NCBI GenBank assembly: GCA_965248755.1
Contig: OZ252149.1
Location: forward strand, 3,104,001 to 3,168,000
Length of the DNA: 64,000 nt
From: Candidatus Latescibacterota bacterium
GTDB lineage: Bacteria; Latescibacterota; CBDEFO01
Direction of reading: 5' to 3'
Positions 3,696 through 61,646 of this stretch are shown in pieces. Position numbers and translations under genes: made by a program. The notes beneath the pieces are model-generated. The model did not search any database, was not told the origin of the DNA, and saw only the letters and a list, made by a program, of their open reading frames with translations. The first letter of the stretch is position 1. Each line of letters opens with the position of its first letter.

Positions 3696-3708
3696 AAAAG
3701 CTCACCTC

Positions 3709-4872: not shown

Positions 4873-4874
4873 GA

Positions 4875-5438: not shown

Positions 5439-5466
5439 CGGTTTACCTCCTCTATCTTTTTTCGAT

Positions 5467-41037: not shown

Positions 41038-41311
41038 GATCAATACCTGCTTTTTCCTAAAAAGTTCTCCAATACTTTTTAGGGGCCCAATTCGCAATGA
41101 CTGAAGGTTGAAGCCAAGGCAATGTCACTCCGAGAAAAGCGAATCGCCCTCTGAGTCGTCGTGCTCCACAGGGCGTCCATCGGCTCGATCCACACCTCTC
41201 GGAGGCTATCGCTCTCCAATCTTCCATTTTCTTCTTCTTCGCTGGACATTTTCACAATCTCCTTGTTTTTAGCAGAATTACACCGATTGACTCATACACC
41301 AATGAAATCCT

Positions 41312-43027
41312 TCATCTCCGAGTTCCCAAGTTACTCCAATCGAAATCCCTCAAAGGGGGCCAAACCCTTGGAAAGTATTTCGAAAATAGAGAATGTTTTT
41401 CCTTCAACCTTTCGACAAAATCTTCACTCATTTCAAAACCTGTTGCCTTCACTATCTTTTCCAGAAATCGTTTACTCTCAGACTTTATCAGATAGCGCGG
41501 TGGTTTGTCCAGCCAGACAACACAGCTTCGGGGACACCATGTACTATATGAGCCTTGAGAATCCTCCTCGTGACAAACAGTTCTCATAAAAAGAAAATAG
41601 TCCGCCTCCAAAAATTCCCTGTGTTCAATGAGTTCTGATAATGCACTTTCATTAAATCGTTCTTTCAGAAGATCAGCCATTTTATTTCTGGTCTCGTCCA
41701 GAGAGCGAAGATAGTCATTGATGTCAACAAAAGGAAAGTATCTTCCACCACGTGCTTCAACAAAAAGGTCATCTATAAGTATATCTCCGATAATTTCCCA
41801 ATTATCGTGTCTTATTAGTGTGGCAATAAATGAAACAAACATTTCAAATACTAAGAACTTGTAGCCATCAGAGTCAGGCACATAATATAGTTTCAGAGCA
41901 CTACCGAAGAAGTTGTATATGGCTTCGATAGCCTCTCTATTTTTATATCTACTTGCTAACTGAGCGGCCTCAATAAAACGATATGAGATGGGTATTCCTT
42001 CCGCGATTTGTTCGTCTATAGCCTCATCATAATGTTCAAATTTTGAAAAATCTGGTTTAATTCGTTCTAAATCATTGAAAATACTTATAAGGTATTCTGA
42101 ATATAAAGGATCAATCAGTTCATTGGGAGATTTAAAAGCACGTTTCAAATCCGAAATAGTTGGTCCTGAGCCAATTGTAGGTGCCAAATCATCCAATCTC
42201 TCTAATAATCGAAAGTAATCGTCTATAAATTGACTAGCTCCTGTGCATGCGATGTAACAATCTTTTGCCTTTACCTTTAATATATTTTCAATTTCACCTT
42301 TGGGAGGGCTTGAATTAACCCAGAATAAAGGATAATAGTTGTAATTTCGCCTTTTGAATACTTTCTGTATACCTTTATCACGGCCAGAATAACCGAGTAC
42401 TAAAACGCCATGCTCGCTCAGAACTCTTATCAATTCTTTTTCCATTAATGGGGATAATTTCTCCAAATCTTTAGGCGTATTTTTTAACGCTCCACGACCC
42501 AGAGTCCCGTGAGGTTTATAGATCCTGACTGCTTTACACTGTATTAGTGGCTCTGAATTCTCTAGATCTTCATCTGTCGAAATTACTTGTGTGTCTAATC
42601 CTTTTTCCTCCAAAGCCCTTTCAATATAGTGGTCAAAATTTGTGGTAATAATAGCTCTTATGATTCCCTGTTCTGCTAGTTCAGCCATTCCTCTATGAGC
42701 CTGTCCAACTTCCCTATTACCTAAATAATTCTTAAGAAAGCTCTGCTGATCTGGATGCTTTGGATAAATTTCTCCTATAAGTTCTGCATACTCCATTTGA
42801 GCATACTGGCTATTTATAAACCATTCTTCTAAATCGACGTTCGGGTCTATCGTATTATTATCGTTAGCACAAAGCAAGTTGGCCGTTTCGAGCATTAAAT
42901 CCCAAGCTGTCGGTATCCCTGCATCCTTCGACACACCGGCACCTGCAAACAGAATATATTTCTTTTCCCCTGGCTCAGCACTTGCAGCCAATTTAATGAT
43001 AGGATCCATAAGCTTTTCTCTTCTCAA
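41312..43027 (-). CDS. SIR2-like (SIR2_2) domain protein with helical C-terminal region; possible anti-phage NADase
   Basis: FAGAGVS, ITTNFD, YKPHG and LGYSGRD motifs; visibly AT-rich; probable start MDPII at 43009. Confidence 0.8.
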   Translation of the reverse strand: MRREKLMDPIIKLAASAEPGEKKYILFAGAGVSKDAGIPTAWDLMLETANLLCANDNNTIDPNVDLEEWFINSQYAQMEYAELIGEIYPKHPDQQSFLKNYLGNREVGQAHRGMAELAEQGIIRAIITTNFDHYIERALEEKGLDTQVISTDEDLENSEPLIQCKAVRIYKPHGTLGRGALKNTPKDLEKLSPLMEKELIRVLSEHGVLVLGYSGRDKGIQKVFKRRNYNYYPLFWVNSSPPKGEIENILKVKAKDCYIACTGASQFIDDYFRLLERLDDLAPTIGSGPTISDLKRAFKSPNELIDPLYSEYLISIFNDLERIKPDFSKFEHYDEAIDEQIAEGIPISYRFIEAAQLASRYKNREAIEAIYNFFGSALKLYYVPDSDGYKFLVFEMFVSFIATLIRHDNWEIIGDILIDDLFVEARGGRYFPFVDINDYLRSLDETRNKMADLLKERFNESALSELIEHREFLEADYFLFMRTVCHEEDSQGSYSTWCPRSCVVWLDKPPRYLIKSESKRFLEKIVKATGFEMSEDFVERLKEKHSLFSKYFPRVWPPLRDFDWSNLGTRR

Positions 43028-43090: not shown

Positions 43091-45382
43091 CTACCCTACC
43101 CTGCCGAAGTTATCCAGAAAGATCACAAAGTCGGACAGACCGATCTCTCCATCATTATCCAAATCAAATACAGAATTAGCTGGATCGGTCGTTGCCCCAA
43201 ACACATCCAAAAAACGGACAAAATCGGAGAGGCCTACTTCATTGTCCCCGTCGAAATCTCCTACAAGAATGCCCTCCACCTTACGTATCCGGTGATTGCC
43301 CTGATCCCCAATATAGATATTTCCCGATCCATCCACGAATACGCTCTGAGGAGAACTCAACCTCGCGCTGGTGGCTGGGCCTCCATCTCCAGAAAAACCA
43401 CGGCTGCCATCTCCTGCCACGGTGGAGATGATGCCAGATGTATCGACCTTGCGTATCCGGTGATTTAACCAATCCACTATATAGATAACGCCCGATCCAT
43501 CCACGAATACGTCATAAGGCCTATACAAACTCGCATCGGTAGCTGGACCACCATCACCGGAAAATCCACCACCACTCCCATTTCCCGCCACGGTGGAGAT
43601 GACGCCCGACGTATCCACCTTACGTATCCGGTAATTGTTCGCATCCGCGATATAGATAACTCCCGATCCATCCACGGATACGCCAAGAGGATTAAACAAG
43701 CTCCCACTGGTAGCTGGACCACCATCACCGGAAAATCCAAGCTCGCCATTTCCCGCTACGGTGGAGATGATACCCGACGCATCCACCTTACGTATCCGGT
43801 GATTGTTCGTATCCGCGATATAGATAACCCCCGATCCATCCACGGATACGCCAAGAGGATTAAACAAGCTCGCATCGGTAGCTGGACCACCATCACCGGA
43901 AAATCCACCGGCGTCAAAACCAGTAGCCCCACTTCCCGCCACGGTGGAGATGATGCCCGATGTGTCCACCTTACGTATCCGGTGATTGTACCGATCCACT
44001 ATATAGATAAGCCCCGATCCATCCACGGACACGTCAGAAGGAAAATTCAAGCTCGCATCGGTAGCTGGACCACCATCACCGGAAAATCCAAACGTGCCAT
44101 TTCCCGCCACGGTGGAGATGATGCCCGATGTGTCCACCTTACGTATCCGGCCATTGTTCATATCCGCAATATAGATATTGCCCGATCCATCCACGAATAC
44201 GCCACGAGGAGTAAAAAAGCTCGCATCGGTAGCTGGACCGCCATCACCGGAAAATCCAGCAATGCCATCTCTCGGCACGGTGGAGATGATACCCGATGTA
44301 TCCACCTTACGTATACGGTGATTGCCCCCATCCGCAATATAGATATTGCCCAATCCATCCATGAATACGGCCAGAGGCGAACTCAACCTCGCACTGGTGG
44401 CTGGACCTCCATCGCCAGAAAAACCACGGGTGCCATCTCCCGCCACGGTGGAGATGATATCCGACGTATCCACCTTACGTATCCGGTGATTGTGCTCATC
44501 CGCAATATAGATATTTCCCAATCCATCTACAAATACGCCAGAAGGCCCATCCAAGCTGGCACTGGTGGCAGGACCTCCATCGCCAGAAAATGCCCTGGTT
44601 CCATTTCCCGCCACGGTGGTGATAATGCCAGACGTATCCACCTTACGTATCCGATCATTGTACTCATCCGCAATGTAGATACTGCCTGATCCATCTACAA
44701 ATACGCCAGAAGGCCCATTCAAGCTCGCACTGGTGGCAGGACCTCCATCGCCAGAAAAACCACGGGTGCCATCTCCCGCCACAGTGGAGATGATGCCCGA
44801 CGTATCCACCTTACGTACCCTCTGATTGGACGTATCCGCTATATAGATATTGCCCGATGCATCCACGAATACGCCTTCAGGCCAAGTCAAGCTGGCGCTG
44901 GTAGCTGGACCCTCATCTCCAGAAAACCCATGGAATCCATTTCCCGCCACGGTGGTGATGATGCCCGACGTATCCACCTTACGTATACGGTGATTGCCCG
45001 TATCCACAATATAGATATTGCCCGATCCATCCACGAATACGCCCTCAGGAACATCCAAGCTCGCACTGGTGGCTGGACCTCCGTCGCCAGAAAATCCATC
45101 GGTGCCATCTCCCGCCACGATGGAGATGATACCTGATGTATCCACCTTACGTATCCAGTGATTGTGTTCCTCCGCAATATAGATATTGCCCGATCCATCC
45201 ACGAATACGTCATAAGGAGCATACAACCTCGCACTGATAGCAGGGTCACCATCGCCGACGCCTCCACCCGCCACCGTAGAAATATCGCCCGGCGCTGAAA
45301 GGGCTGAAGGGACAAATCCAAACATCCAAAAGCCCAATACCAAAATACTAATCAGAATCTCTTTGACGTGATCCTTTTTCAT
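43091..45382 (-). CDS. Secreted NHL-repeat protein (about 12 repeats) with EF-hand/dockerin-like tail
   Basis: ~56-aa repeats; paralog of 39544-41037 with matching N- and C-termini. Confidence 0.85.
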   Translation of the reverse strand: MKKDHVKEILISILVLGFWMFGFVPSALSAPGDISTVAGGGVGDGDPAISARLYAPYDVFVDGSGNIYIAEEHNHWIRKVDTSGIISIVAGDGTDGFSGDGGPATSASLDVPEGVFVDGSGNIYIVDTGNHRIRKVDTSGIITTVAGNGFHGFSGDEGPATSASLTWPEGVFVDASGNIYIADTSNQRVRKVDTSGIISTVAGDGTRGFSGDGGPATSASLNGPSGVFVDGSGSIYIADEYNDRIRKVDTSGIITTVAGNGTRAFSGDGGPATSASLDGPSGVFVDGLGNIYIADEHNHRIRKVDTSDIISTVAGDGTRGFSGDGGPATSARLSSPLAVFMDGLGNIYIADGGNHRIRKVDTSGIISTVPRDGIAGFSGDGGPATDASFFTPRGVFVDGSGNIYIADMNNGRIRKVDTSGIISTVAGNGTFGFSGDGGPATDASLNFPSDVSVDGSGLIYIVDRYNHRIRKVDTSGIISTVAGSGATGFDAGGFSGDGGPATDASLFNPLGVSVDGSGVIYIADTNNHRIRKVDASGIISTVAGNGELGFSGDGGPATSGSLFNPLGVSVDGSGVIYIADANNYRIRKVDTSGVISTVAGNGSGGGFSGDGGPATDASLYRPYDVFVDGSGVIYIVDWLNHRIRKVDTSGIISTVAGDGSRGFSGDGGPATSARLSSPQSVFVDGSGNIYIGDQGNHRIRKVEGILVGDFDGDNEVGLSDFVRFLDVFGATTDPANSVFDLDNDGEIGLSDFVIFLDNFGRVG

Positions 45383-48085: not shown

Positions 48086-49601
48086 AAGCCTTGTGAAATA
48101 GTTATCTTGTAGGCAGCGTCTGAAACGCTTATTATGGGTCAAACAGTAGCATATCGTATCGTTTTGCTATGGAATAAGCAAAATAGTCTCATCAGAGTTC
48201 TGGTCAGCAAGGAATAGAAGCTGTTTGAAGAACAGGATGCACTGTCTTTGACAGACAGGGCACATATAGACGCTTTTCTCCTTCTTATGAAGGATACAAG
48301 CCTCTTGAGATTCTGCACTGTTGCAACAAGATTTAACTGTTCATTCAGTGAGGCCAATCCCCTGTAACGGGCTCGGCCCATACCGTGCTGTTGTTTGGCT
48401 TCAGCAAAGATATGTTCACTGCGTTTGCGGAGCTTCTGGGAGAGTCTGTAGTCAGATGTCAATGAGATAGATCGTGCATAATTCCTGGCCTTTGCCTCTC
48501 GCACTTTCTTATCTCGCTTGGCCTGAATATGTACGAAATTTGTCTTGTTTTTCCAAGTAGGAATTGGCTCAATCTCTTCACCTGATCGCAGAGGAATGTG
48601 GGGTGTGATTCCCCAGTCAAGTATATCAGCGATAAAACCACCAGAACCGTAACCGGTATCGGCAGTAAGTGTCTGAATGCCTTCGGGCATAGTGTATACT
48701 TCAAGATCATCAACCATCTTAAGGGCACTTTCAGTCTCGGCTGTCGCCTGTGTGCCCTGTGTCTCAAGGATTACTCTACTTTTTGTGTCGATGAGATCAT
48801 GACCCATAAACGAAAGAGAAGCCCCCGTGCCTTTTGACTTTTTGTATAAGAGAGCATCGGGGTCTGTAGTCGAACGGTGCGTCTGGTTCGTCCACTTTTC
48901 ACCATGAAAGTCCTTATCGTGAGAATGCCCAGACCTATCTTCGGCCTGTACCTTATCACCTTCAAAACCCATTTCCTTTAGGTAGTCATCAAGAGAAACA
49001 GGAAGCTCTATCGGCTCAATACTCTTCACCGAAGCATTCGCTCGTATCTGAGTGCCATCAACACTTAAGTGTTTACCGCTCACAAGACCGACATCTATAC
49101 AGCGCTGGACTACCTGACGCATTATCTGTTCAAACAATCCACTAGATGCCCACTTGTGATTGCGAAGCTTGTTGATCGTGCTTCTGTCTGGAACCTCATC
49201 CTCAAATGTCTGATGACAAAACAACCTATATGCCGCATGCATCGCCACTTCCTGACAAAGCCGATTCTCACTCAAATTATACAAATAGCCGATAAGGATC
49301 ATTCGAATAACTAATTCAGGATCAATACCGGGTCTGCCATTATCAGAGCAATAACAATCTGACACAACGTCTCGTACAAATGAAAAATCAACCGCTTTAT
49401 CAATTTGACGGAGAATATGGTCTTGGGGAACTAAATCCTCCATCTGAAAATAGTGAAATATCAGATTTGTCTGTTCCTTCTTTTGTGGCGTTATTATTTC
49501 CTCCATGTATAATATTATCAATGATATAATATAATACATGGAGATTGCTCCGTCAATGTTTTTATACTATTTGTTCGATTTAAGGGTTTTTCACAAGGCT
49601 T
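48086..49601 (-). mobile_element. IS1182-family insertion sequence, apparently intact
   Basis: 13-bp terminal IRs AAGCCTTGTGAAA / TTTCACAAGGCTT, flanked by a TTAG direct repeat (48082-48085 and 49602-49605). Confidence 0.9.
48139..49506 (-). CDS. IS1182-family DDE transposase
   Basis: VPQDH, GRPGIDP, VDGT-I-ANAS, STTDPDA, ADTGY and EHIFAEAK motifs. Confidence 0.92.
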   Translation of the reverse strand: MEEIITPQKKEQTNLIFHYFQMEDLVPQDHILRQIDKAVDFSFVRDVVSDCYCSDNGRPGIDPELVIRMILIGYLYNLSENRLCQEVAMHAAYRLFCHQTFEDEVPDRSTINKLRNHKWASSGLFEQIMRQVVQRCIDVGLVSGKHLSVDGTQIRANASVKSIEPIELPVSLDDYLKEMGFEGDKVQAEDRSGHSHDKDFHGEKWTNQTHRSTTDPDALLYKKSKGTGASLSFMGHDLIDTKSRVILETQGTQATAETESALKMVDDLEVYTMPEGIQTLTADTGYGSGGFIADILDWGITPHIPLRSGEEIEPIPTWKNKTNFVHIQAKRDKKVREAKARNYARSISLTSDYRLSQKLRKRSEHIFAEAKQQHGMGRARYRGLASLNEQLNLVATVQNLKRLVSFIRRRKASICALSVKDSASCSSNSFYSLLTRTLMRLFCLFHSKTIRYATV

Positions 49602-50724
49602 TTAGACTCCACTGAAGTAACAGGTGCTGATGGAGCTTATCTTTTCTCCTCGATCCCTAGGTAGTGTAGATTACAATCTCGTACCAGATAGATTCGATGC
49701 CCCTGCTGGCTTATCGGGGACGATAGTAAGTCTTACTGATGCTGCACTTACTTTAAGAATTGCTCTAAATTTGGATGTTCCAACTCCAGAGCAGTCCCGC
49801 GCTGCCGATGCGAATGGAGTGGGAGGCGTGACCCTTACTGATGCCGCACTTGTCTTGAGGTCCGCCCTCAGTCTCGATGCTACATGGCCTATAGGTAAAT
49901 TCTGGGTGTTTGAACCTGACACCGCTGAGTTTGTCTCATTACGCGCAGATACAGTTCAGAATTTCGCATCTATTCTTGTGGGCGATGTTAACGGTAGCTT
50001 GAAGGACATCGCTGCTGCAAAGGTAGTCGCGAGGGAGTCCCATATTCAGGTCGGCATAGGGGAAGTAAAGGATAAGGTCGAGAAGTTTATCACTGTTGCT
50101 TTGATGGTCAGTGAGGTCGAGGATATGTACGGCGCAGGCTTTACGATAGACTATCCCAATGATGTTCTGAGAATCAGGCACATTAAGACTACCCAACTGA
50201 CCGATGGATATATGCTGGCATCTAATTTGGATAAGGCGGACGATGTGGGGAAAGTGATATTCGGGATGATAAATGCTACTCCACTACAGGGGAGCGGTGC
50301 TATAGCTGAGTTAGTATTTGAGGTAATAGGCGAAGACGTTAGATCTGCGTCTTTTGGGTTAGTGGATGGAGATCTGTATGATCTTAAAGGACCCATGGGT
50401 GTCCAATTGTACGATGGGGAGTTTATGGCTCTTCCGGAGCAGGCTTCCTTAAGTCAGAACTATCCTAATCCGTTTAACCCGGAAACTACTATTGATTATG
50501 CTATTCCGGTCGGTAAGGAGCTAACGCCAGTTTCACTGAAGATATATAATATTTCTGGTCAAGTTGTCAGAACACTTGTGGATGAGGAGAAAGCGCCTGG
50601 TTTCTATACGGCTGTATGGGACGGTAGAGATAAGCAGGACAAAGTTGTTAGCAGTGGGATTTATTTCTACCGCATCGTAGCCGATAAGTTTATTTCTGTT
50701 AAGAAGATGGTGCTGTTGAAATAG
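49602..50724 (+). pseudogene. 5'-truncated secreted dockerin-cohesin-FlgD-Ig protein
   Basis: No signal peptide. An upstream frame reads LDSTEVTGADGAYLFSSIP then shifts. Dockerin ADANGVGGVTLTDA, cohesin and QNYPNPFNP tail are present. Confidence 0.65.
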
Positions 50725-50811: not shown

Positions 50812-53800
50812 ATGAACACTTTAAAGCTGCTGTTGCGGTCAGCTATTCTTCTAACTCTCTCTGTAAACGCCTTATATGCTCAGTATGGTGAGCCGTTCGC
50901 AGTAAGCCTGACCGGCATAGACGGCAGCTCCACTATCATAGCCAATCCCGGAGAACAGTTTCAAATTGAGGCAAGGGTCAGTCCGGTAACTAAAGGCCTA
51001 TTCGGATTCTCCTCAAAATTTGGGTTTGACCCTAATGTTATCGAGATGGTAACAGAGTTTGGGCAACCGATCATAGTGCGTGTTCCGCCATTGCCTGGTA
51101 ATCCCACACCTGCTGGTGGTCTGGTAGCTGGCACAACTGACACGCTTAGTATGGGCGTTGTCGCATCAGATGGTGTTGGTGATTCGCCTGTTAGTGGTCC
51201 GATTCTTAGGATTACGTTTAGAGTGAAGAGCACAGCTACTCCTGGTGATTCGAGTCCGCTTAATTTGGTTAATACTGTTGTTAGTGTAGACACTCTTTTG
51301 GCATTTGGACCCTTTTTTGGTGTAGACATTCCTGCGGATACTCTTAGAAGCGCGGTAGTGCAGGTTCCTCCAGATACCACTGGTTCTGTCATTGATGTCT
51401 CCCCGACAAGTATAGATTATGGTGTCGTATTGGTAGGTGGTAGTTCTGACAGTACGATAAAGATTAAGAACGTAGGCAACGGGAACTTAGTCTTAGGGAC
51501 TCTGTCCATTACAGGCACTAATGCAGGTGAGTTTTCTATTTTTACTCCTCCCATTATAACTATCGCTCCGAGCGATAGCACTAATGTTGTCATAAGGTTC
51601 TCACCTCAGTCGGGTGGAACAAAATCAGCCACTTTGGTCATTCCGAGCAACGATCCAAATAAGCCATCTGTGAACGTACCGTTGACTGGTGCAGGTGTCT
51701 CCCCTAAAACTATAACAGTAACGGTAACGGATGCTGTGGGCAATCCAGGAGATCTGGTGAAAGTGAAGGTATTCGTGGAGCTGCAGCCTGAGGCTACCCT
51801 CGGCTTGTCTGAAATGGATATCAAGCTTAACATTGATCCGACAGTCATCAAAGTGGCGGGCACATTTATAAAAGACATCACCACTTTGCTGCCGTCATTC
51901 AGTAATTTCGCTACAGTCACCAATAGTGACAGTACGATTCACCTTATAGGCGCTCAGGGATCGGGTATTGCGCTAACATTCGCAGATTTGGGGCTTCCTG
52001 GAAACCCTGAAGCTGCCTGGGAGATCGGTTTCAACGTAGTAGGAAGTCCAGGGGATGTCAGCCCGATCACCGTAAATCTGGTAACGTCGGGTTTATCTAC
52101 GGGCCCTCGTGGGTCCACGAACACTGCACTTAATCCAGTAGATATTGCTGTAAATGGAAGCTTCAGTATACCTGTGGTCATCTCCAAAACTACAGTAGTG
52201 GCGGCTCGCACGACTCTCAAGGCCGACGGAGCTGATACTACGCTAATTACAGTAACTCCGAGAAAGGCCGACGGTAGTAAGATCAGTACCACTCTAAATG
52301 TGAGCGTTAATACAACAGCAGGTTCCGTTGGGGGTGTAACCGCTGAGACTGATAGCACATATACGGCTGTTCTGACCGCATCAAATGTTTTCGAGACAGC
52401 TGTGGTTAAGGCTATTATCGCTGGACAAGTGGCTCCTGACTCTGCGGTGGTGGTTTACCAACCTGCCCCTGATTCTCGATTTGGTGAGCCGTTTACAGTA
52501 AGGTTGACCGGTACTGACGGGGATACTACTATTGTAGCCAATCCAGGAGAGGAGTTTCAAATTGAGGCGAGGGTCAGTCCGGTAACTAAGGGCTTATTCG
52601 GATTCTCCTCTAAATTTGGGTTTGACCCTAATGTTATAGAATTGGTCACACAGTTTGGGCAACCGATTATAGATCGTGTTCCTGCATTACCTGGTAATCC
52701 TACACCTGCTGGCGGTCTGGTAGCTGGCACTACTGATACGCTTAGTATGGGAGTTGTCGCATCAGATGGTGTTGGTGATTTTCCTGTGGGTGGTCCTGTT
52801 CTTAGTATTACGTTCAGAGTGAAGAGTACAGCTAATCCTGGGGATTTGAGTCCGCTCAATTTGGTTGATGCTGTTGTTAGTGTAGATACCCTTTCGGTAT
52901 TTGGACCATTTTTTGGCATAGACATTCCTGCGGATACTCTTATAAGCGGAATGGTGGAGGTTATTCCAGTTACCACTGGTGCTGATATTGATTTCCCCAC
53001 GAGAAGTATAGATTTTGGTCCTGTTCAGGTAGGCAGCAGTGTGGACAGTACGCTAAAGATTAAGAACGTAGGCAACGGGAACTTAGTCTTAGGAGCTCTG
53101 TCCATTACAGGTACAAATGCAAGTGAGTTTTCTATTGTTGTTCCTCCAAGTACGACTATCGCTCCGAGCGATAGCACTAATGTTGTCATAAGGTTTTCGC
53201 CTTCGTCAGATAGTGCAAAGTCTGCCACTTTGGTCATTCCAAGCAACGATCCGGATAAGCCATCTGTGAATGTACCGTTGACTGGTGCAGGTAATCTTCC
53301 CTCTGCCCTTCAGGTTAGCATGCCGCATATTACGGCGTCTCCGGGTGAACTCATTTTGATCCCAATACAGATAACAACTCCGGGGCGCTTTGCTATCTCC
53401 TCAACTGAAATGTTCATTAGCTATGATTCTGACGTTACAAGAGCGCTTGAAGTAGTTACTGCTGGCACACTCACCGAGGGATGGGAGCTTATTTCCTTCA
53501 GGCATTCTTCTGGAATACTAACCTCTATTGATACGGCAAAGGTAGCTATGGCAACGCCCGTTGATACACTCACCGGGCCTGGCACTCTTGCCTTCATCAG
53601 AGTTAGCATCCCCCATACAGCTGCCCAAGGCGCTACCACACCCCTTGCTTTCCAGCGTCTTCTGTTTAATGATGGAGATCCGTCCGCGGTGACACAGAAT
53701 GGATCGCTCACTGTTGTTGCTATTCTAGGAGATGTCAGCAGTAATGGGAGAGTTGGTGCTTTTGATGCGTCGTTGATTCTCAGGGAGGTGGTGGGGCTTA

Positions 53801-54654
53801 TCACCTTACCTGATCCTGAATGGCCACACTTCACTTTATCTGTTGCCGATGTAAGCGGTGACGGGACGATCTCTCCTTTGGATGGAGCGCTCATCCTACG
53901 GTTCGTTGTTGGGATCACAGACCGCTTCCCTGTGCAGGCAGGACGATTTCCCAAATTTGTCTCTTCTGAAAGAACCATTCGGTTAGGAGAACAAGAGAAA
54001 TTACGTGATGGCTATTTCCGCGTTCCGATCTCTATAGATGAAATGGATGAAGTGCTTGCAGGCAAGATTCAGCTTACCTTTGATCCTTCGCATGTCACTG
54101 TAAAGGAAGTCTTGTCCGTTGGGTTAACCGCAGATTATCTTTTTGAAAGCAATATCATCCCCGATAGATTCAATCGGGGAAAGGATAAGATCATCATTGC
54201 CTTTGCAGGAGTGAAACCTCTCTCAGGAAGCGGTGAAGTTGCACATATTATCCTTAAAAGTGATACGATGCAGGAAGATATAATGGGAAGTGTTTCTCTG
54301 GAGATGGTAATTTTGAACGAGGGGCAAATCGGTGTGCTTATTGTTGGTAGTGAGGAGAAACAGACGTCGTATCCAGATACTTACCGATTATTTCAGAATT
54401 TCCCGAATCCTTCCAACCCAGAGACGACAATTCGGTATTATCTGCCCTCCTCCACCCCTCTCACGCTGACGATCTATAATCTGTCCGGACAGTTGATTCG
54501 GACACTGGTAGACGGACAAAGATCAGCCGGTAGCCACTCAGTGATATGGGATAGCACGGACGACACCGGAAATCCTGTGGCGAGCGGAATTTATCTCTAT
54601 CGGGTGGAGGCAGATGGATTTGCGCAGACGAGGAAGCTGATATTGATGCGGTAG
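50812..54654 (+). CDS. Large secreted modular protein: duplicated cohesin-like plus ASH modules, invasin-type Ig, cohesin, dockerin, cohesin and FlgD-Ig tail
   Basis: Signal peptide; ~270-aa internal duplication (GEPF...SNDP..PSVNVPLTGAG); GDVSSNG and DVSGDG dockerin loops; QNFPNPSNP tail. Confidence 0.85.
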   Translation: MNTLKLLLRSAILLTLSVNALYAQYGEPFAVSLTGIDGSSTIIANPGEQFQIEARVSPVTKGLFGFSSKFGFDPNVIEMVTEFGQPIIVRVPPLPGNPTPAGGLVAGTTDTLSMGVVASDGVGDSPVSGPILRITFRVKSTATPGDSSPLNLVNTVVSVDTLLAFGPFFGVDIPADTLRSAVVQVPPDTTGSVIDVSPTSIDYGVVLVGGSSDSTIKIKNVGNGNLVLGTLSITGTNAGEFSIFTPPIITIAPSDSTNVVIRFSPQSGGTKSATLVIPSNDPNKPSVNVPLTGAGVSPKTITVTVTDAVGNPGDLVKVKVFVELQPEATLGLSEMDIKLNIDPTVIKVAGTFIKDITTLLPSFSNFATVTNSDSTIHLIGAQGSGIALTFADLGLPGNPEAAWEIGFNVVGSPGDVSPITVNLVTSGLSTGPRGSTNTALNPVDIAVNGSFSIPVVISKTTVVAARTTLKADGADTTLITVTPRKADGSKISTTLNVSVNTTAGSVGGVTAETDSTYTAVLTASNVFETAVVKAIIAGQVAPDSAVVVYQPAPDSRFGEPFTVRLTGTDGDTTIVANPGEEFQIEARVSPVTKGLFGFSSKFGFDPNVIELVTQFGQPIIDRVPALPGNPTPAGGLVAGTTDTLSMGVVASDGVGDFPVGGPVLSITFRVKSTANPGDLSPLNLVDAVVSVDTLSVFGPFFGIDIPADTLISGMVEVIPVTTGADIDFPTRSIDFGPVQVGSSVDSTLKIKNVGNGNLVLGALSITGTNASEFSIVVPPSTTIAPSDSTNVVIRFSPSSDSAKSATLVIPSNDPDKPSVNVPLTGAGNLPSALQVSMPHITASPGELILIPIQITTPGRFAISSTEMFISYDSDVTRALEVVTAGTLTEGWELISFRHSSGILTSIDTAKVAMATPVDTLTGPGTLAFIRVSIPHTAAQGATTPLAFQRLLFNDGDPSAVTQNGSLTVVAILGDVSSNGRVGAFDASLILREVVGLITLPDPEWPHFTLSVADVSGDGTISPLDGALILRFVVGITDRFPVQAGRFPKFVSSERTIRLGEQEKLRDGYFRVPISIDEMDEVLAGKIQLTFDPSHVTVKEVLSVGLTADYLFESNIIPDRFNRGKDKIIIAFAGVKPLSGSGEVAHIILKSDTMQEDIMGSVSLEMVILNEGQIGVLIVGSEEKQTSYPDTYRLFQNFPNPSNPETTIRYYLPSSTPLTLTIYNLSGQLIRTLVDGQRSAGSHSVIWDSTDDTGNPVASGIYLYRVEADGFAQTRKLILMR

Positions 54655-55366: not shown

Positions 55367-56350
55367 ATGAAAAATAAGATATTAGTCGTACCACCTTTCC
55401 TGGATCACAGTGTATTTGAAGAAGATGAAGACACAGGTGTGGACATATTGAAAAGGGAATTGCCCTTCGAGCCGGTTATTGAAGCGTACGAAGTAGGGAC
55501 GCTCTCCGCAGATCGTGCTGAAGGGGTTGCAGCCGTAATAGCGGATGGGTCTAAAGTCGATGAAGAGTTCTTCAAAGCGGCCAAGGGCATTATCTACGCC
55601 AGGTGGGGAACAGGTACAGACGGCTACACCAAGGAGATGGTCCTCAGGAATAATATATTGGCTACCAAAGTGCTGGGCGCAAGCGCAGATGCCGTTGCCG
55701 AGTACTCTATCTGGGCCATTCTGGACCTTTTAAAGGAAGCGACGTACAACAACAATCTGGCTCATCAGGGACAAGCAAGGAGGGTAGTAGCAAGACAGAT
55801 CAAAGGCAAGACGGTGGGTATTTACGGATTCGGCCTGATAGGCCAGGGCGTAGCAAGAAAACTCAAGGGATTGGAAGTCCATATTCTGGCATACGATATG
55901 GTAGATAAAAGCCAGATAGCAGATGAGATAGACGTGGAGTTAGTCGCAGCCCCTGAAGAGCTCTTAGCTAGATCGGACATCGTCTCTTTGCATGTCTCTG
56001 CCTCGGACACGATCATTGACAAGGCCGCCATAGAAAAAATGAAGGATGGGGCAATATTGGTGAACCCTTCCAGAGACTTTCTGATAGACGAGACGGCTGT
56101 GTACGAAGCGTTAGAATGCGGGAAACTTTCGGGAGTCTATCAGGAAGAACTTCCCCAAGAAGAGCGGCTGCGCGGACATCCACATGCCCTCTTCAGCCAT
56201 CACAACGCAGGAATATCTGTCGAAGCCTGCAGGGCTTTGACTACTACGACCGCTCACCAACTAGCCGACTTCCTCAACGGGTACCAACCTGAGCATATAG
56301 TCTATCGGGAAGTGCTGAAAAATATGAATCTCAAACCTAAAAGAAGATAA
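55367..56350 (+). CDS. D-isomer-specific 2-hydroxyacid dehydrogenase (SerA-like, divergent)
   Basis: GTGTD, AVAE, GFGLIG, SLH, VNPSR and HNAG motifs. Confidence 0.85.
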   Translation: MKNKILVVPPFLDHSVFEEDEDTGVDILKRELPFEPVIEAYEVGTLSADRAEGVAAVIADGSKVDEEFFKAAKGIIYARWGTGTDGYTKEMVLRNNILATKVLGASADAVAEYSIWAILDLLKEATYNNNLAHQGQARRVVARQIKGKTVGIYGFGLIGQGVARKLKGLEVHILAYDMVDKSQIADEIDVELVAAPEELLARSDIVSLHVSASDTIIDKAAIEKMKDGAILVNPSRDFLIDETAVYEALECGKLSGVYQEELPQEERLRGHPHALFSHHNAGISVEACRALTTTTAHQLADFLNGYQPEHIVYREVLKNMNLKPKRR

Positions 56351-56507
56351 AATCCTCACTACGACCTTCCCACTGCTTTTCTCGGCTTTTTTGTCAACTC
56401 CGCTCACCGGTTTCTCTGTGTTCTGGCTCCCCATACGCAAGTAGACAGTAAACAGGGACATAGCTTCCCATCCCTGTGTGCTGTCTACTATGTTTTGGTC
56501 GCCATAT

Positions 56508-56535
56508 GAACTTTTGAATTCCCCGCGGTGTCTTA
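56508..56535 (+). promoter_or_regulatory. Candidate ECF-type (sigmaE-like) autoregulatory promoter
   Basis: GAACTT(56508-56513)-16 bp-GTCTTA(56530-56535), about 100 bp upstream of the ECF sigma gene. Confidence 0.6.
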
Positions 56536-56630
56536 TGTAGTGAAAGCCTTTTCCCACAAAAAAGTTCTTCCCCGATTGAATCCCCAATAGCATCAATTGG
56601 GGATCGGAGATAGACGAAGATAAAAGGGCT

Positions 56631-57236
56631 TTGATGACACAATCCGATCGAGACCTCATTGGGAAGATTCGGGATCGCGATGCCAACGCCTTCGAGACGC
56701 TATTTGTGCGCTACAGGGAGATGGTCCGCCGACACTTGGCGAGCATAGTGCACGACGAGGATGGGGCCGACGACCTGGTGCAGGAGGTCTTTCTGCGGGT
56801 ATGGACTCGCGCAGAGCAGTGGAACGGCCGGGGGGCATTTAAGGCGTGGCTCTTCCGCATCGCTACAAACCTTGCACTTAACCACCTGCGCAGTCTGCGT
56901 AGGAGAAGACAGCAATCTCTCGACATCTCAGCGGATCCAGCCGACGACGACGACGAAAGTCCTGTCCCCGGATGGATGATCGACGCCTCGTCACTCGGAC
57001 CTGATGCGGTGCTTGAACAGGCCGAACAGCACGACCTACTCCAGGGTCTTATCGATAGGTTGCCCGAAGAAAAGCGCGAGGTTTTCCGGATGGTGCACGA
57101 GGTGGAGGTGGACATTCGGGATGTCGCCCACGCACTTGATATCCCAGAGGGCACCGTAAAATCGCGCCTGCACTACGCCAGGAAACATCTCGCTCGAAAA
57201 TGGAAGGAAATAGCGATAGAATGGGAGGATATGTAA
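56631..57236 (+). CDS. ECF (group 4) RNA polymerase sigma factor
   Basis: Region 2 ADDLVQEVFLRVW...FKAWLFRIATN and region 4 LPEEKREVF...VAHALDIPEGTVKSRLHYAR. Confidence 0.95.
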   Translation: MMTQSDRDLIGKIRDRDANAFETLFVRYREMVRRHLASIVHDEDGADDLVQEVFLRVWTRAEQWNGRGAFKAWLFRIATNLALNHLRSLRRRRQQSLDISADPADDDDESPVPGWMIDASSLGPDAVLEQAEQHDLLQGLIDRLPEEKREVFRMVHEVEVDIRDVAHALDIPEGTVKSRLHYARKHLARKWKEIAIEWEDM

Positions 57237-60200
57237 TGGCACTGGATATATCTGCGTTTTGGCATAGGGAATCGTTCGACCGGTTTTTGAAGGACCAGTT
57301 ACCCCAGCTCCTGGCTGCTCGGATGCCGCTTGTCGCCTATCATGTCGAATCGACCGGCATCTACACCTGTCACGTTAAGGTTGCTTTTGGGTCTGCCTCC
57401 GGAGACGTAGACGTCGAGTACACTGACCTTCCTCAACCGGACGAGGAAGGTATCTTCGAGGTCGAAAGCGTAAAGTATGTGGTCGTCCCGATAGCCTTTC
57501 AAGAGGAGTTAGACCTCGCCGAGATCCGCTGTGTCGGCGAACAGCTTTACGACTACTTTGAAGAGCGCCTGGGCGAAGCGCCGGAGGACTTACCATGGGA
57601 CGAGTCGCTCGCGCGAGCCTGGCTTCCGCTCAATGTGTGGATGCGTGAATTCCTGCACGCGGACCTACCGTGGGACGGAAATATAGTGCAAACGGCCCAC
57701 ACGCTCCATGATCAAAACTGGCTCGACAGGCATGCGCATCTGCGGCGCATCGTAGTTATGGACCCAAAGAAGATGTTCACACCTGGGCACCTCGGCCGCA
57801 CCTGTCCCTTCGAGACGCCGGAGGGCCCCAATATCGGTCGAATCCTAAGCATCGCCATGGGCGCGGAGATCAGCGATGGGAAGCTCGTCATTGTCAATGA
57901 TAAGCCTGAAGCTTCCATCGGTCTTTCAGCGTCTATGGTCCCCTTTCTGGAGCACAACGACCCGAACCGACAGCTTATGGGGGTCAACATGATGCGTCAG
58001 TGGTTCGTGCCGGCGGAGGTGGAACCTGCGCTCGTCCAGACCGGAAATGAACCCGACGCACCCGGCTTCTGGTGCGGGCGCAACCTGCTGACTGCCTTTG
58101 TCTCATGGGGTGCGGACACCTTCGAAGACGGCATCGTGGTGGGCAAATCGTGCGCCGAGCGCCTCAACTACCCCCATCCCGTCGAAGTGGGAGACAAGAT
58201 CAGCAACCGCCACGGAACCAAGGGCGTTGTGGCGAATATCCTGCCCGACAAAGAAATGCCGCACCTCGCCGATGGCACTCCGATAGAACTCGTTTTCAAC
58301 TTTATCAGCGTTCATTCGCGGATGAACCTCGGTCAACTGCGTGAGGCGCTAACAAGCCGCATCGCGAAAGCGGAGGGAGCGCCAGTCGTTGTGCCCCCAT
58401 TCGGCGCGCCGGGTGAACGTGAACTTCGCGAACGCCTTGCAAAGGCCGGACTTCCTGAAGACGGGATGGAGGTCCTCACGCTCGGACGCGATGGGCTGAA
58501 ACTGTGCCGGCCGAGCACAGTCGGATGGGTCTACTGGGGACGGCTCAATCACCTGGCGCGCAATAAGATATTTGTGTCTACCGATCACCATAAGCGCTCT
58601 TCAAAACAGGGCGAACTTGAGTATTATGCACTACGCGACGTCGGCACATTTGAAAACCTGATGGAGCATTTCAACACGCGCGCCCTCCGGCGGGACGATG
58701 CGGATAAACTCGCAGATCGCGTCGCAGAAGGCGCGGTCGAACAGGCCGGCCCGCCGACTCCCGGGTTCTCCGAAATAGCTCGGCGTCTTGTGGCTGGGGG
58801 GATCCAAGCAGAACTCGAAGGTGAGAAGCTAACGTTCAAATTTGCCAAACCCGAGGGCGATACTCTCAAGCTTGCCCGTCCAGTTGCGCATCCGTGGATA
58901 TGTGATCAAGAATTAGATGAGATCGGCGCTTTTGATGAACTTTCCGAATACCGCAATCTCGCCGAGGTCAACGCCAAAGCAGAACGCATACTCGCAAGCG
59001 ACGCTCCCGAAAGCCTGACCCGCAAAGCTTTTGAACAGCTCCAAACCCACGTGGGAAAGTTCTTCGACGCTCTCCTTGGCCCTCCCCACCTGCGCTTCGG
59101 CGAAAACTCACTCTTCAGCGGGCGAACGGTGATCTCGCCGGGGGCGGACCTTCGGATCGACCAGTTGGGACTTCCGGAAGAGATCGCGTGGACGCTCTTT
59201 GGGCCACTTGTAAGGCGAGAACTCAGCGTAGGGGCAGACTCGCGTGTCTGCCCTCCAGATTCGGGCGAACACATGGGTTCGCCCCTACATAAAGAGGAAG
59301 TAGACACCAGAAGCCCGCGTGCAACGGAGGAGCTCGACGAGATAATGGCGCGCTCGTGGGTCCTTCTACAGCGCATTATGCCCACGTCGTTCCTCGCGTT
59401 TCACCCCGTGCGGTGTCCAGGTCGCACTATCCATATCCATCCGCTCGTGTGTAGCCTGATGAACGCCGACTTTGACGGTGATCAGGCCGCTGTCTTCCTG
59501 CCGATCACCGAGGGCGCACAGCGCGAGGCTGGCGAGCGTCTGTCCGTCGCCGGTCACCTTGCGCGCGACCCGGAACTGCTCAAGTCACTGCTCCCGACGC
59601 ATGAAGCGATGTGGGGCGTTGCGAGTCTGAGCCTTACACCAAAAGGGCGCGAAGAGGTCTCAGAGCTTGCAGGGACTGACGTGACTGCACCCGACGGTAT
59701 CATCACGAGAGACTCGCTTGCCGAGGCGATGAAAGGCGTCCTTGAGTGCGATGGGATCGATAAGACCCTCGAAGTGCTCGAACGGCTGATGCGGCGAGGA
59801 TTTGAGGTCGCAAAGGAATCCGGAGCGTCCATTAGCCCGTTCATCGGGTCGAGCTTAAAGCGCTCGCCAGAGCCAGAAGAGGGTGACGCTGAGATGTGGG
59901 ATGACTACGCGGAGGAGCTTGTGGAACGGATCGCAGGACGCACGGACTTTGAGGACAACGATATGGGTCCGCAACTTCTTGCGATAAAGAGCGGCGCACG
60001 AGGTCAACTGCGCCAGCTTGCCTACCTGGTCGGGGCACGGGGCACAGCTACGGATGTCCGGGGGAGGGACGTACCGATCCGCCGCGGATATTCCGATGGC
60101 CTGACGCCCCAGGAGATGTACGCCGCTGTGGTCGGCGCACGGGAGGGACTTGCCGAAACAGTGCTGGAGACGTGGACGCGGTTTGGACTCGAATTTCATG

Positions 60201-60370
60201 AGGCAAGACAGCCGAAAGGCTTCAACTTCCTTGCGCGCGCAATGCGGGCAAAGCGCCCCGGCATCGTCTTCGCTCGCGCCGCGGCAACGGGCGAGATCGA
60301 TCCACTTACGGACGTCGACAGTCGCCTGTTCGTCGGACTACCCGCAAAATTAGTAGACAGCAAACAGTAG
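57236..60370 (+). CDS. Miniaturised single-chain RNA polymerase beta-beta' (RpoB-RpoC) fusion, ~1044 aa
   Basis: ATG overlaps the sigma stop (TAATG) with a GGAGG RBS. Collinear RpoB motifs: GRTCPFETPEGPNIG, PFLEHNDPNRQLMGVNMMRQ, FEDG, GDKISNRHGTKG, SRMNLGQ, GELEYYAL. Then RpoC motifs: LARPVAHPW, FSGRTVI, HPLVC..NADFDGDQ, SGARG, GAREGLAET. Confidence 0.92.
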   Translation: MALDISAFWHRESFDRFLKDQLPQLLAARMPLVAYHVESTGIYTCHVKVAFGSASGDVDVEYTDLPQPDEEGIFEVESVKYVVVPIAFQEELDLAEIRCVGEQLYDYFEERLGEAPEDLPWDESLARAWLPLNVWMREFLHADLPWDGNIVQTAHTLHDQNWLDRHAHLRRIVVMDPKKMFTPGHLGRTCPFETPEGPNIGRILSIAMGAEISDGKLVIVNDKPEASIGLSASMVPFLEHNDPNRQLMGVNMMRQWFVPAEVEPALVQTGNEPDAPGFWCGRNLLTAFVSWGADTFEDGIVVGKSCAERLNYPHPVEVGDKISNRHGTKGVVANILPDKEMPHLADGTPIELVFNFISVHSRMNLGQLREALTSRIAKAEGAPVVVPPFGAPGERELRERLAKAGLPEDGMEVLTLGRDGLKLCRPSTVGWVYWGRLNHLARNKIFVSTDHHKRSSKQGELEYYALRDVGTFENLMEHFNTRALRRDDADKLADRVAEGAVEQAGPPTPGFSEIARRLVAGGIQAELEGEKLTFKFAKPEGDTLKLARPVAHPWICDQELDEIGAFDELSEYRNLAEVNAKAERILASDAPESLTRKAFEQLQTHVGKFFDALLGPPHLRFGENSLFSGRTVISPGADLRIDQLGLPEEIAWTLFGPLVRRELSVGADSRVCPPDSGEHMGSPLHKEEVDTRSPRATEELDEIMARSWVLLQRIMPTSFLAFHPVRCPGRTIHIHPLVCSLMNADFDGDQAAVFLPITEGAQREAGERLSVAGHLARDPELLKSLLPTHEAMWGVASLSLTPKGREEVSELAGTDVTAPDGIITRDSLAEAMKGVLECDGIDKTLEVLERLMRRGFEVAKESGASISPFIGSSLKRSPEPEEGDAEMWDDYAEELVERIAGRTDFEDNDMGPQLLAIKSGARGQLRQLAYLVGARGTATDVRGRDVPIRRGYSDGLTPQEMYAAVVGAREGLAETVLETWTRFGLEFHEARQPKGFNFLARAMRAKRPGIVFARAAATGEIDPLTDVDSRLFVGLPAKLVDSKQ
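59228..59288. repeat. GTAG-type REP doublet inserted in-frame in the mini-RNAP gene
   Basis: GTAGGGGCAGACTCGCGTGTCTGCCC...GGGCGAACACATGGGTTCGCCCCTAC. Confidence 0.85.
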
Positions 60371-60411
60371 ACAGCACACAGGGCTTCCCCCTGCCCATCT
60401 CCCTTGAAAGG

Positions 60412-60441
60412 CGAGATTGCTTCGCTATCGCTCGCAATGAC
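60412..60441. repeat. GAGATTGCTTC...CTCGCAATGAC palindromic repeat family; related copies near 18824, 24114, 25355, 41092, 60500 and 61808
   Basis: Recurring intergenic motifs ATTGCTTC, CTCGCAATGAC and GAAGCAATCTC. Confidence 0.75.
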
Positions 60442-60668
60442 ACAGAGAGTGTTGGCAATGATGTTGCTTGTCCTTTTGTCATTGCACAGTGCCAAAAGTC
60501 CGAAGCAATCTCAAAAACACTTTCTATGGTCATTGCGAGGCAGCGTGGCCGCTCTGCTGGGATGGCTGAAAGCCACGGAGGTTGTGGTAAACTGTTAGTT
60601 GAGTGTGGCAGGCAAAAGAGGTTATTTCTACCGTTAGGCGTAAGATCAGAACATAAAAGGAGGAAACA

Positions 60669-61646
60669 TTGAACCAAGTTCTTGATGACACCAAGAAAAC
60701 GTTTCGCAGTCTGCTCGACGAAAGCACTGATCATCAATGCATTATCGACTTGCTCGTATCTCTTCGGGAAAAGGTCGATTTGTCGGTGGACGATACTGGG
60801 TGGGCCTTGTGGAATATTTGCGACCAATACGCACTAATGCGGGATGCAAAGAACCAGTACACTTATCAGTCCGAGTTTCACGAGTGGGCCAAAGCCAATC
60901 TTCCCCCTTCGAGGTTTCACTGGGTTGTCTCGGACGGGACGCAGGCACTCAGTCTGATTGATGGCGGCTATCTCGACTTCTGGTGGCGATGTTACAACCT
61001 CGCCAACGAGCAATGCCCACGAGATGCTAAGAACCGCGGCGCCCGATTCGAATCGCATAGAGCCAATGCAGCTTCATATACTCACTTTCGGGAATTCAGT
61101 CGTGCTGAAACCGCCCTGAATGCAATAGAGGAACTCCTTGCGGAGGATCAGTCCTGGAGCAACCGCGAATTCGCTGCAGCAACATACTCAACTCTCCTGG
61201 TTGACTTTTACAATGTTTCGGAGCAAAGAGACAAACTCGCACAAACAGAGGGAACCCTTGAAAAGGAGCTTGATGATTGGCTTGGCCGAGCAGGCGATGT
61301 AGAAGACGCACCGGAGGGCCCTTTGCTAGGGAGTTGGGACCAACTGAATGCAGATAGGCCACCGGCGGCGATTTTCATTGCAATCAACAACACCGCGTGT
61401 GCTTTCACCAGAGCGAAGCAATTCCCGGATGCAGAACGGTTGTTCCGCATTTTGCTGGAAAGAAACAGGATTCTAAATGCCTATGGCCAAGCGCAATATC
61501 TACAATCATGTTGGGGGAACAGGCGCAACAAGGATGAAATTGTTGATTGGCTGGACGGCTCCAAGCAACTAAACCCACAAAATCTGAAAAGATTCGCACC
61601 ATCGCTCATAGATGTCGTCAAAGATGAACGTCCGGATTTCGCCTAA
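60669..61646 (+). CDS. Hypothetical all-helical (TPR-like) protein in an integron-cassette-like unit
   Basis: AGGAGG RBS with TTG start; helical pattern; bounded by GTTAGGC (60633) and GCCTAAC (61641). Confidence 0.65.
   Translation: MNQVLDDTKKTFRSLLDESTDHQCIIDLLVSLREKVDLSVDDTGWALWNICDQYALMRDAKNQYTYQSEFHEWAKANLPPSRFHWVVSDGTQALSLIDGGYLDFWWRCYNLANEQCPRDAKNRGARFESHRANAASYTHFREFSRAETALNAIEELLAEDQSWSNREFAAATYSTLLVDFYNVSEQRDKLAQTEGTLEKELDDWLGRAGDVEDAPEGPLLGSWDQLNADRPPAAIFIAINNTACAFTRAKQFPDAERLFRILLERNRILNAYGQAQYLQSCWGNRRNKDEIVDWLDGSKQLNPQNLKRFAPSLIDVVKDERPDFA

Follow-up and report, generated by a model that had tools for sequence, protein, structure and literature searches.

An ECF-type sigma factor gene paired with a gene for a single-chain minimal RNA polymerase in Latescibacterota and other bacterial phyla

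The sigma and polymerase genes

A 64,000-nt stretch of the genome of a Candidatus Latescibacterota bacterium (assembly GCA_965248755.1, contig OZ252149.1, positions 3,104,001 to 3,168,000; this whole stretch is called the window) contains two overlapping genes, which encode an extracytoplasmic function (ECF)-type sigma factor and a single-chain beta::beta' minimal RNA polymerase. We analyzed this two-gene module computationally. Coordinates are positions in the window unless a locus or genome label is given. The sigma gene (56634-57236, + strand) encodes a 200-aa protein, which possesses regions 2 and 4 only. This protein was matched by the Pfam models Sigma70_r2 (E = 2.2e-19), Sigma70_r4_2 (E = 2.5e-12) and Sigma70_ECF, and it passed the cut-off of the NCBIfam ECF superfamily model TIGR02937 (110.2 bits; cut-off, 42.9 bits). 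It scored below the cut-off of all named ECF equivalogs in NCBIfam, of which the best was NF009166 (136.5 bits; cut-off, 206 bits). The polymerase gene (57236-60370, +) encodes 1044 aa and begins within the stop codon of the sigma gene: in the sequence TAATG at 57234-57238, the TAA of the sigma gene (57234-57236) overlaps the ATG of the polymerase gene (57236-57238). The ribosome-binding site of the polymerase gene, GGGAGG (57223-57228, +), is located inside the sigma gene, 7 nt before this ATG. An earlier first-pass annotation of this DNA had taken the stop/start overlap and the internal ribosome-binding site as a sign of translational coupling, and both can be read directly in the sequence. 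Two further ATGs (57200 and 57221) lie in the same frame, but homologues share the N-terminus that begins at 57236, which favours the ATG at this position as the start codon.

The size of the polymerase is less than 40% of that of host beta and beta' combined; normal rpoB and rpoC frames (1315 and 1387 aa) are present elsewhere in the genome, which is a single 4.54-Mb contig. Pfam domains were found in the order Rpb2_3 (residues 160-212), Rpb2_6 (residues 315-447, E = 4.9e-37) and Rpb1_2 (residues 625-767, E = 3.1e-16). The Rpb2_6 match is the beta-type catalytic barrel (58178-58576, +), which carries the R-H-G-x-K-G motif and from which the flap insert is missing. The Rpb1_2 match is the beta'-type catalytic barrel (59108-59536, +), in which the NADFDGDQ metal-binding motif (59462-59485, +) contains D745, D747, G748 and D749. 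Because bacterial models outscored archaeal ones (170.6 bits for rpoB and 124.8 bits for rpoC versus 104-129 and approximately 50 bits), we consider the polymerase to be a derivative of bacterial beta and beta'. These scores lie far below the curated cut-offs for rpoB (801 bits) and rpoC (963 bits), and the score against the curated fused model was 185 bits (cut-off, 4632 bits). The full-length beta::beta' fusions described by NF011417 and NF007172 (approximately 2840-2890 aa) share the beta-then-beta' order with the minimal polymerase but are complete housekeeping enzymes.

The beta part was compared with host beta and was used in a profile search of solved structures. The N-terminal segment, the fork region, the P-F-L-E-H-N-D block, the R-H-G-x-K-G barrel and the C-terminus of beta are kept, and the barrel shows 33% identity to residues 1082-1309 of host beta. 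Approximately 250 residues of host beta (approximately 825-1082), which make up the flap, have no counterpart, and only about 10 residues lie between the conserved blocks that flank this position. In the canonical core, the flap is an insert in the beta barrel, serves as a dock for sigma region 4 and NusA and belongs to the RNA exit channel. The lobes are also absent. Comparison with host beta' showed that the beta' part starts directly after the beta C-terminus and keeps a short N-terminal segment (host residues approximately 100-110), the clamp coiled coil, switch 2, the barrel, the funnel helices and the bridge helix. The coiled coil (58943-59074, +) covers residues 570-613, and the alignment with host beta' runs from polymerase residue 572 and host residue 263 onward. 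In the region of the bridge helix (60107-60205, +; residues 958-990), polymerase residues 907-979 align with host residues 685-766. The bridge helix is followed by approximately 55 residues, versus approximately 600 in host beta', which is too few for a trigger loop and jaw. Nine residues of this tail weakly match residues 1110-1118 of host beta' (E = 0.19). The idea that the C-terminal 50 residues correspond to the C-terminal conserved region of beta' was unsupported by BLAST and was dropped. No zinc-finger cysteines of the beta' type were noticed before residue 552 on reading the sequence, a reading made without a dedicated test.

Among 121 family sequences, D747, G748, D749 and R325 are invariant, and conservation reaches 90% or more at D745, H326, K329 and numerous further positions of the core. 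As far as can be judged from the sequences, such conservation fits an active enzyme and not a decoy. An AlphaFold2 model computed with the 121 sequences was confident and compact (pLDDT, 92.5; pTM, 0.89) and superseded a poor model computed with 21 sequences (pLDDT, 59.4; below 50 in the beta half). In the confident model, the coiled coil consists of one helix at residues 570-587 and another at residues 592-613; the bridge helix is likewise modelled as a helix, at high confidence. Thus, the coiled coil, which the first-pass annotation had described as kept despite heavy deletion, is seen both in the alignment with host beta' and in the model. When the model was used as a query in Foldseek, beta and beta' chains from bacteria and plastids were the top matches (E = 4e-23 to 7e-20). 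A complex prediction for the sigma factor and polymerase residues 245-1044, each supplied as an alignment and run without controls, gave scores of 0.27 and 0.24 (mark, 0.32) and speaks neither for nor against binding.

The polymerase is comparable with several known enzymes. It resembles canonical RNA polymerase (RNAP) in both barrels, NADFDGDQ, the bridge helix, switch 2, the fork and the coiled coil; it differs in that it is one chain of 1044 aa instead of approximately 2700 aa in two chains, and in that it does not possess the flap, lobes, trigger loop and jaw. Orf6 of the yeast killer plasmid pGKL2 is described as an Rpb2::Rpb1 fusion of 982 aa from which approximately half of the sequence has been deleted (PMC2919709). 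Thus, Orf6 and the minimal polymerase are alike in fusion of the two large subunits, in reduction and in size. Orf6 is of eukaryotic descent, is encoded on a linear plasmid and is not known to have a sigma partner, whereas the minimal polymerase is of bacterial descent, is chromosomal and is tied to an ECF sigma factor and an ECF-type promoter. Enzymes of the type of YonO from the Bacillus prophage SPbeta are described as a single chain of approximately 100 kDa with both barrels and no trigger loop (PMC5467207, PMC2919709, PMC7824862), and the minimal polymerase shares these features of single chain, both barrels and missing trigger loop. YonO-like enzymes are only very distant kin of beta and beta' and are borne by phages or other elements. 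In contrast, Pfam models of beta and beta' match the minimal polymerase directly, and the phage collections searched gave no member of its family. Neither the pGKL2 fusion nor YonO is known to be linked to a sigma factor or to be chromosomal in free-living bacteria.

Conservation of the gene pair and extent of the family

In 39 of 44 loci, tblastn detected an orthologous sigma gene that directly precedes the polymerase gene and has the same orientation. The remaining five loci have less than 700 nt upstream or lie at a contig edge; for four of them (L013 and L015-L017), the sigma gene was found upstream in the genomes G040, G007, G012 and G032. The sigma orthologues in this upstream position show 42-96% identity to the sigma factor of the window. 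In a sample of 41 genomes from the same phylum, the polymerase and the sigma factor (at least 57% identity) occur in exactly the same 12 genomes, which belong to 3 of 17 genera, and all other sigma matches show 37% identity or less. We then clustered the neighbouring genes of 33 loci (up to 6 kb of flank on each side, open reading frames (ORFs) of at least 90 aa, all-against-all). The polymerase was shared by all 33 loci and the sigma factor by 32, and the missing locus has no upstream DNA. Other large clusters were alternative frames within the two genes. No third conserved gene was found in these flanks, and the next genuine cluster comprised only four closely related loci. The same holds for flanking ORFs of at least 40 aa, none of which is conserved beyond the four closely related loci, and no conserved neighbour encodes an alpha- or omega-type subunit.

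In the window, the module is preceded by a 2-hydroxyacid dehydrogenase gene (55367-56350) and followed by a 325-aa ORF (60669-61646, +), for which searches of Pfam, NCBIfam, PADLOC and PHROGs gave nothing and which is not conserved beside the module in other loci. Family models detected no anti-sigma domain in these neighbours or in the module. This agrees with the earlier observation that no anti-sigma gene is adjacent.

The pairwise distances of the sigma factors and of the polymerases are strongly correlated (r = 0.89 over 24 pairs; none of 2000 permutations gave a value as high), and the mean divergence of the two proteins is nearly equal (0.48 and 0.47). In sequence terms, the correlated distances show co-inheritance of the two genes, which is short of proof of physical co-evolution. 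Conserved linkage of the genes across homologs and parallel divergence of their products, both of which would be expected of the co-evolved holoenzyme proposed in the first-pass annotation, are found in the data. The sigma stop codon lies -10 to +20 nt from the polymerase start in 21 of 32 loci and overlaps it in 12 of these; the remaining loci, mainly from Poribacteria, have gaps of 28-263 nt. Three loci carry another gene between the two. In L038, an S9-family peptidase gene (3233-5638) is located there. In L129 (860-2050) and L130 (267-1412, -), a passenger gene encodes a protein of 381-396 aa, which belongs to no family, is 93% identical between the two genomes and gives a weak TPR hint.

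Thirty sigma orthologues have in common a linker motif, P-x-W-M/L-I/V-D...G-P, and an acidic C-terminal tail of the W-E-E type, and also carry several conserved tryptophans. Five other ECF sigma factors encoded by the genome of the window possess none of the linker motif, the acidic tail and the family tryptophans. These features of the sigma sequences could be adaptations to a non-canonical partner. Fusion of the two proteins was not seen: there was no sigma domain among the 120 full-length polymerase matches listed, and a sigma search among proteins of 351-2000 aa gave nothing at E <= 1e-20, which is weak evidence. Natural split forms of the polymerase were not evident among the shorter matches, which are mostly labelled partial or lie on short contigs. 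In L035 and L045, both from long-read metagenome-assembled genomes, the polymerase gene is broken into two to three frames that overlap, possibly by frameshift or through an error of assembly.

The polymerase belongs to a large family. A word-indexed search gave at least 120 full-length relatives (990-1106 aa; 54-91% identity; 94-100% query coverage). Both barrel domains are present in all 120 relatives listed, and those with a name are called hypothetical protein. A profile search of 1.84 billion representatives gave approximately 75 full-length clusters at 50% identity, which scored approximately 850-1640 bits. In the same search, long beta::beta' fusions (1613-2522 aa) scored 429 bits or less. 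Therefore, the family is sharply separate from canonical fusions. Judged by record titles and source names, members occur in at least seven phyla: Poribacteria, Armatimonadota, Latescibacterota, Hydrogenedentes, Gemmatimonadetes, Chloroflexota (Anaerolineae, Chloroflexia, Ktedonobacteria, Caldilineae and Limnocylindrales) and Planctomycetota (Phycisphaerae and Brocadiia). In a FastTree tree of 24 full-length members, the Poribacteria group together (one change) with the window protein as their sister (support, 91), and Chloroflexota and Armatimonadota are split (three and two changes, respectively). The tree, which has no outgroup and from which no direction is claimed, suggests mostly vertical descent with some transfer.

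We also searched for earlier descriptions of this family. No curated family model in NCBIfam, PADLOC or PHROGs covers the polymerase family: PADLOC gave no family for the polymerase and one insignificant match for the sigma factor (E = 0.0041), and in PHROGs only generic beta- and beta'-like phage families were matched. Searches of 72,556 plasmid records, of 50,697 phage records and of a viral contig collection gave no full-length relative. A description of the family was not found in the full-text literature, a search whose coverage excludes subscription papers, and Rpb-type neighbours are unmentioned in the main text and one supplement of the ECF reclassification paper (PMC7826278). The polymerase family appears to be new and is widespread, and the module combines known kinds of protein, namely a two-barrel polymerase and an ECF sigma factor. 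In the ESM Atlas, several other clusters (50-109 members each) join beta and beta' barrels in one chain of approximately 1220-1790 aa, which hints at further undescribed families of fused polymerases.

The promoter, the leader and the search for other targets

A conserved promoter is located upstream of the sigma gene. It consists of a -35 element, TGAAC (56507-56511, +), and, 15 nt after it, a -10-like element, GGTGTC (56527-56532, +). A promoter start at 56508 had been given in the first-pass annotation, and this coordinate falls on the -35 element. TGAAC...GGTGTC was found upstream of the sigma gene in all 34 loci compared, with one site per locus and with the 15-nt spacer in 32 of them. 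GGTGTC is mostly preceded by C or G, and a purine-rich element follows a few bases later. In the window this element is AGTGAAAG (56539-56546, +), which lies at about the transcription start and is moderately conserved in the position weight matrix (PWM; columns 34-41); in relatives with a short leader, it occupies the position expected of a ribosome-binding site. The consensus of ECF promoters comprises an AAC-containing -35 element and a short -10 element of the GTC or GTT type, approximately 18 nt apart. Thus, judged by its sequence, the layout of the promoter is of the ECF type, and the sigma factor of the module would be expected to recognize it. The sigma factor likewise resembles canonical systems in that it is a standard two-domain ECF sigma factor with an AAC-type -35 element.

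The PWM was constructed from 31 unique sites, and the site of the window was in the training set. In the 4.54-Mb genome, the promoter of the window scored 40.6 bits and the next sites scored 20.0, 19.4 and 19.3 bits; in a control with the reversed genome, no site scored above 16.3 bits. These three next-best sites lie antisense inside three tandem paralogous ORFs of approximately 440-600 aa (G000:C1:1612251-1619231, -), and such sub-threshold sites in tandem paralogues are probably due to chance. A strict promoter pattern gave six matches in the genome of the window versus seven in the control. In five complete genomes of Poribacteria, a strict pattern gave 30 matches versus five in the control. 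Of these 30, only the five self sites are located outside long open frames, and each of the other 25 falls within a frame of at least 120 aa. Within the limits of consensus scanning, the sole detectable target of the sigma factor is its own operon. The first-pass annotation had supposed that the sigma factor and polymerase control a regulon of their own. The search speaks against this supposition, because the operon promoter is the only convincing copy in the genome of the window and the five complete genomes. The module differs from canonical ECF systems in this point and in the absence of an anti-sigma factor, whose co-transcription is typical but not universal in the ECF group.

Between the promoter and the sigma gene, the window has a leader of approximately 100 nt (56538-56633, +), which is lineage-specific; the leader is only 15-20 nt long in most relatives. 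In the predicted fold of 56538-56640 (-29.9 kcal/mol; z = -3.4; one of 200 shuffles as stable), the ribosome-binding site and start codon of the sigma gene are base-paired to the 5' purine-rich element. In the lineage of the window, an insert of approximately 85 nt has apparently given rise to a new, complementary ribosome-binding region. If the fold is formed as modelled, the leader may act as a translational brake on an autoregulatory loop. Rfam gave no matches over 56200-60800. Between the dehydrogenase gene and the promoter, an imperfect inverted repeat is followed by a T-rich stretch (56441-56488, +). By its sequence this repeat may be an insulating terminator; a terminator consensus scan made no call at this position.

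Possible modes of action and genomic surroundings

In the current view, transcription in every cell relies on a five-subunit core of approximately 400 kDa. The reduced single-chain relatives that we know of belong to phages, prophages and killer plasmids, and we know of none that uses a sigma factor. Because the pairing of the genes is strict and coupled, the coiled coil is kept, the catalytic residues are conserved and the sigma factor has features of its own, we favour, tentatively and at slightly less than an even chance, the reading that the module is autoregulated and makes an active minimal polymerase, for which the sigma factor serves as the initiation factor. In this mechanism, the module would have been acquired by horizontal transfer and would be positively autoregulated. 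The sigma factor would first use the host core at its own promoter, and translational coupling would then yield the sigma factor and the minimal polymerase together. The main known role of the clamp coiled coil in canonical RNAP is the docking of sigma region 2. Region 2 of the module sigma could similarly dock on the coiled coil that the minimal polymerase has kept, and the two-polypeptide holoenzyme would initiate at the same promoter and close the positive loop. Because the sole detected target of the sigma factor is its own operon, the output of this circuit would be the polymerase itself.

Several points weigh against this mechanism. In canonical holoenzymes, the flap tip is the docking site of sigma region 4, and, from the alignments, the flap tip that would position this region is deleted from the minimal polymerase. 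In the coiled coil, only 8 of 44 positions are conserved at 90% or more, versus roughly a third of positions in the whole protein. A convincing second copy of the promoter was found in none of the six genomes, although a diverged consensus would escape the scan, and a loop that transcribes only its own operon has no obvious benefit. The geometry of the promoter is ordinary, so that the host core with the sigma factor alone could account for its use. Finally, the members of the family are all hypothetical proteins and come mostly from metagenome-assembled genomes.

A stronger form of the favoured mechanism is an orthogonal two-polypeptide system of approximately 140 kDa, which has a private ECF sigma factor and promoter, is autocatalytic and independent of the host core once started, and is spread over at least seven phyla. 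We regard this form as possible but doubtful. The same doubt applies to its functional comparison, in which the system would be the cellular counterpart of the T7 polymerase system assembled from beta, beta' and sigma parts. If a 1044-aa enzyme does work with a 200-aa ECF sigma factor, it would be the smallest sigma-dependent polymerase known, and it would show that the flap, lobes, trigger loop and zinc finger are dispensable for promoter-specific initiation. It would then offer a tractable model for sigma-core recognition and a compact, programmable and orthogonal expression system.

The main alternative, which we consider less likely, is that the sigma factor is an on-switch that works through the host core only, and that the minimal polymerase acts without sigma on different templates (for example, single-stranded, nicked or foreign DNA or RNA). 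The enzyme would then be likened to the sigma-independent YonO or QDE-1, with a role perhaps in defence, repair or priming. The lone promoter of the operon is the pattern expected when an ECF sigma factor has its output gene in its own operon, and its geometry is like that of ordinary ECF promoters. The loss of the canonical dock of sigma region 4 points in the same direction. The trigger loop is absent, as is described for YonO-type and RNA-dependent enzymes (PMC2919709, PMC7824862). A sigma factor that meets only the host core would not explain why the coiled coil is kept in such a heavily reduced enzyme, and it fits less well with the frequent stop/start overlap, the strict co-occurrence and the equal divergence rates of the two proteins, or with the family-specific surface features of the sigma factor. 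A role in defence or in a mobile element also finds no link in the PADLOC families or in the phage, plasmid and viral contig collections searched. If the enzyme does act independently of sigma, a two-barrel polymerase would have a new role in the cell, which awaits discovery. Either way, the polymerase family is widespread, unannotated and directly testable.

The base composition of the module bears on a further explanation. The GC content is 0.587 in the module, 0.489 in the genome and 0.476-0.485 in host rpoB and rpoC, and only 0.9% of 9074 genome segments of the same size are equally GC-rich. The module had earlier been noted as richer in GC than core genes, and these values bear this out. 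They are compatible with the explanation that the module is a transcription unit, domesticated or selfish, that belongs to a mobile element, plasmid or virus not yet recognised and persists as a self-amplifying loop with no benefit to the host. The patchy distribution in the phylum sample, the non-monophyly of Chloroflexota and Armatimonadota on the tree and the restriction of the promoter to the module itself would also suit such a unit, and yeast killer plasmids, which encode a fused minimal polymerase (PMC2919709), provide a precedent. We nevertheless judge this explanation improbable, since the flanks vary between loci and contain no conserved mobility, replication or virion genes, no member was found in the phage, plasmid and viral contig collections searched, and the family shows strong purifying conservation with mostly phylum-coherent clades, such as that of Poribacteria. 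It is also very unlikely that the fusion protein merely titrates the sigma factor from the host core via the coiled coil in place of an anti-sigma factor, as the first-pass annotation had suggested for an RNAP mimic: the gene does occupy the usual anti-sigma slot of the operon, the sigma-docking coiled coil is kept and no other anti-sigma candidate is conserved nearby, but approximately 1040 residues at 54-67% identity across phyla go far beyond the needs of a decoy, the elements that handle nucleic acid are intact, no anti-sigma domain was detected, and the invariant or nearly invariant metal-binding aspartates and beta-barrel basic residues of the 121 sequences fit poorly with an inert protein.

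Several other genes of the window were noticed. A gene for a DDE transposase (DUF772 and DDE_Tnp_1; 48139-49539, -) is located approximately 7 kb upstream of the module and is not its direct neighbour. A SIR2-like protein (41312-43027, -) gave a full-length match to the candidate defence family PDC-S65 (E = 8.6e-59) and also matched the SIR2 domains of Ago-associated and Thoeris models; its gene is flanked by genes for NHL-repeat proteins at 39544-41097 and 43091-45382. A 1280-aa protein (50812-54654, +) possesses cohesin, dockerin and several Ig-like domains together with a C-terminal sorting domain of type IX secretion, and a smaller protein encoded beside it (49624-50724, +) carries the same sorting tail.

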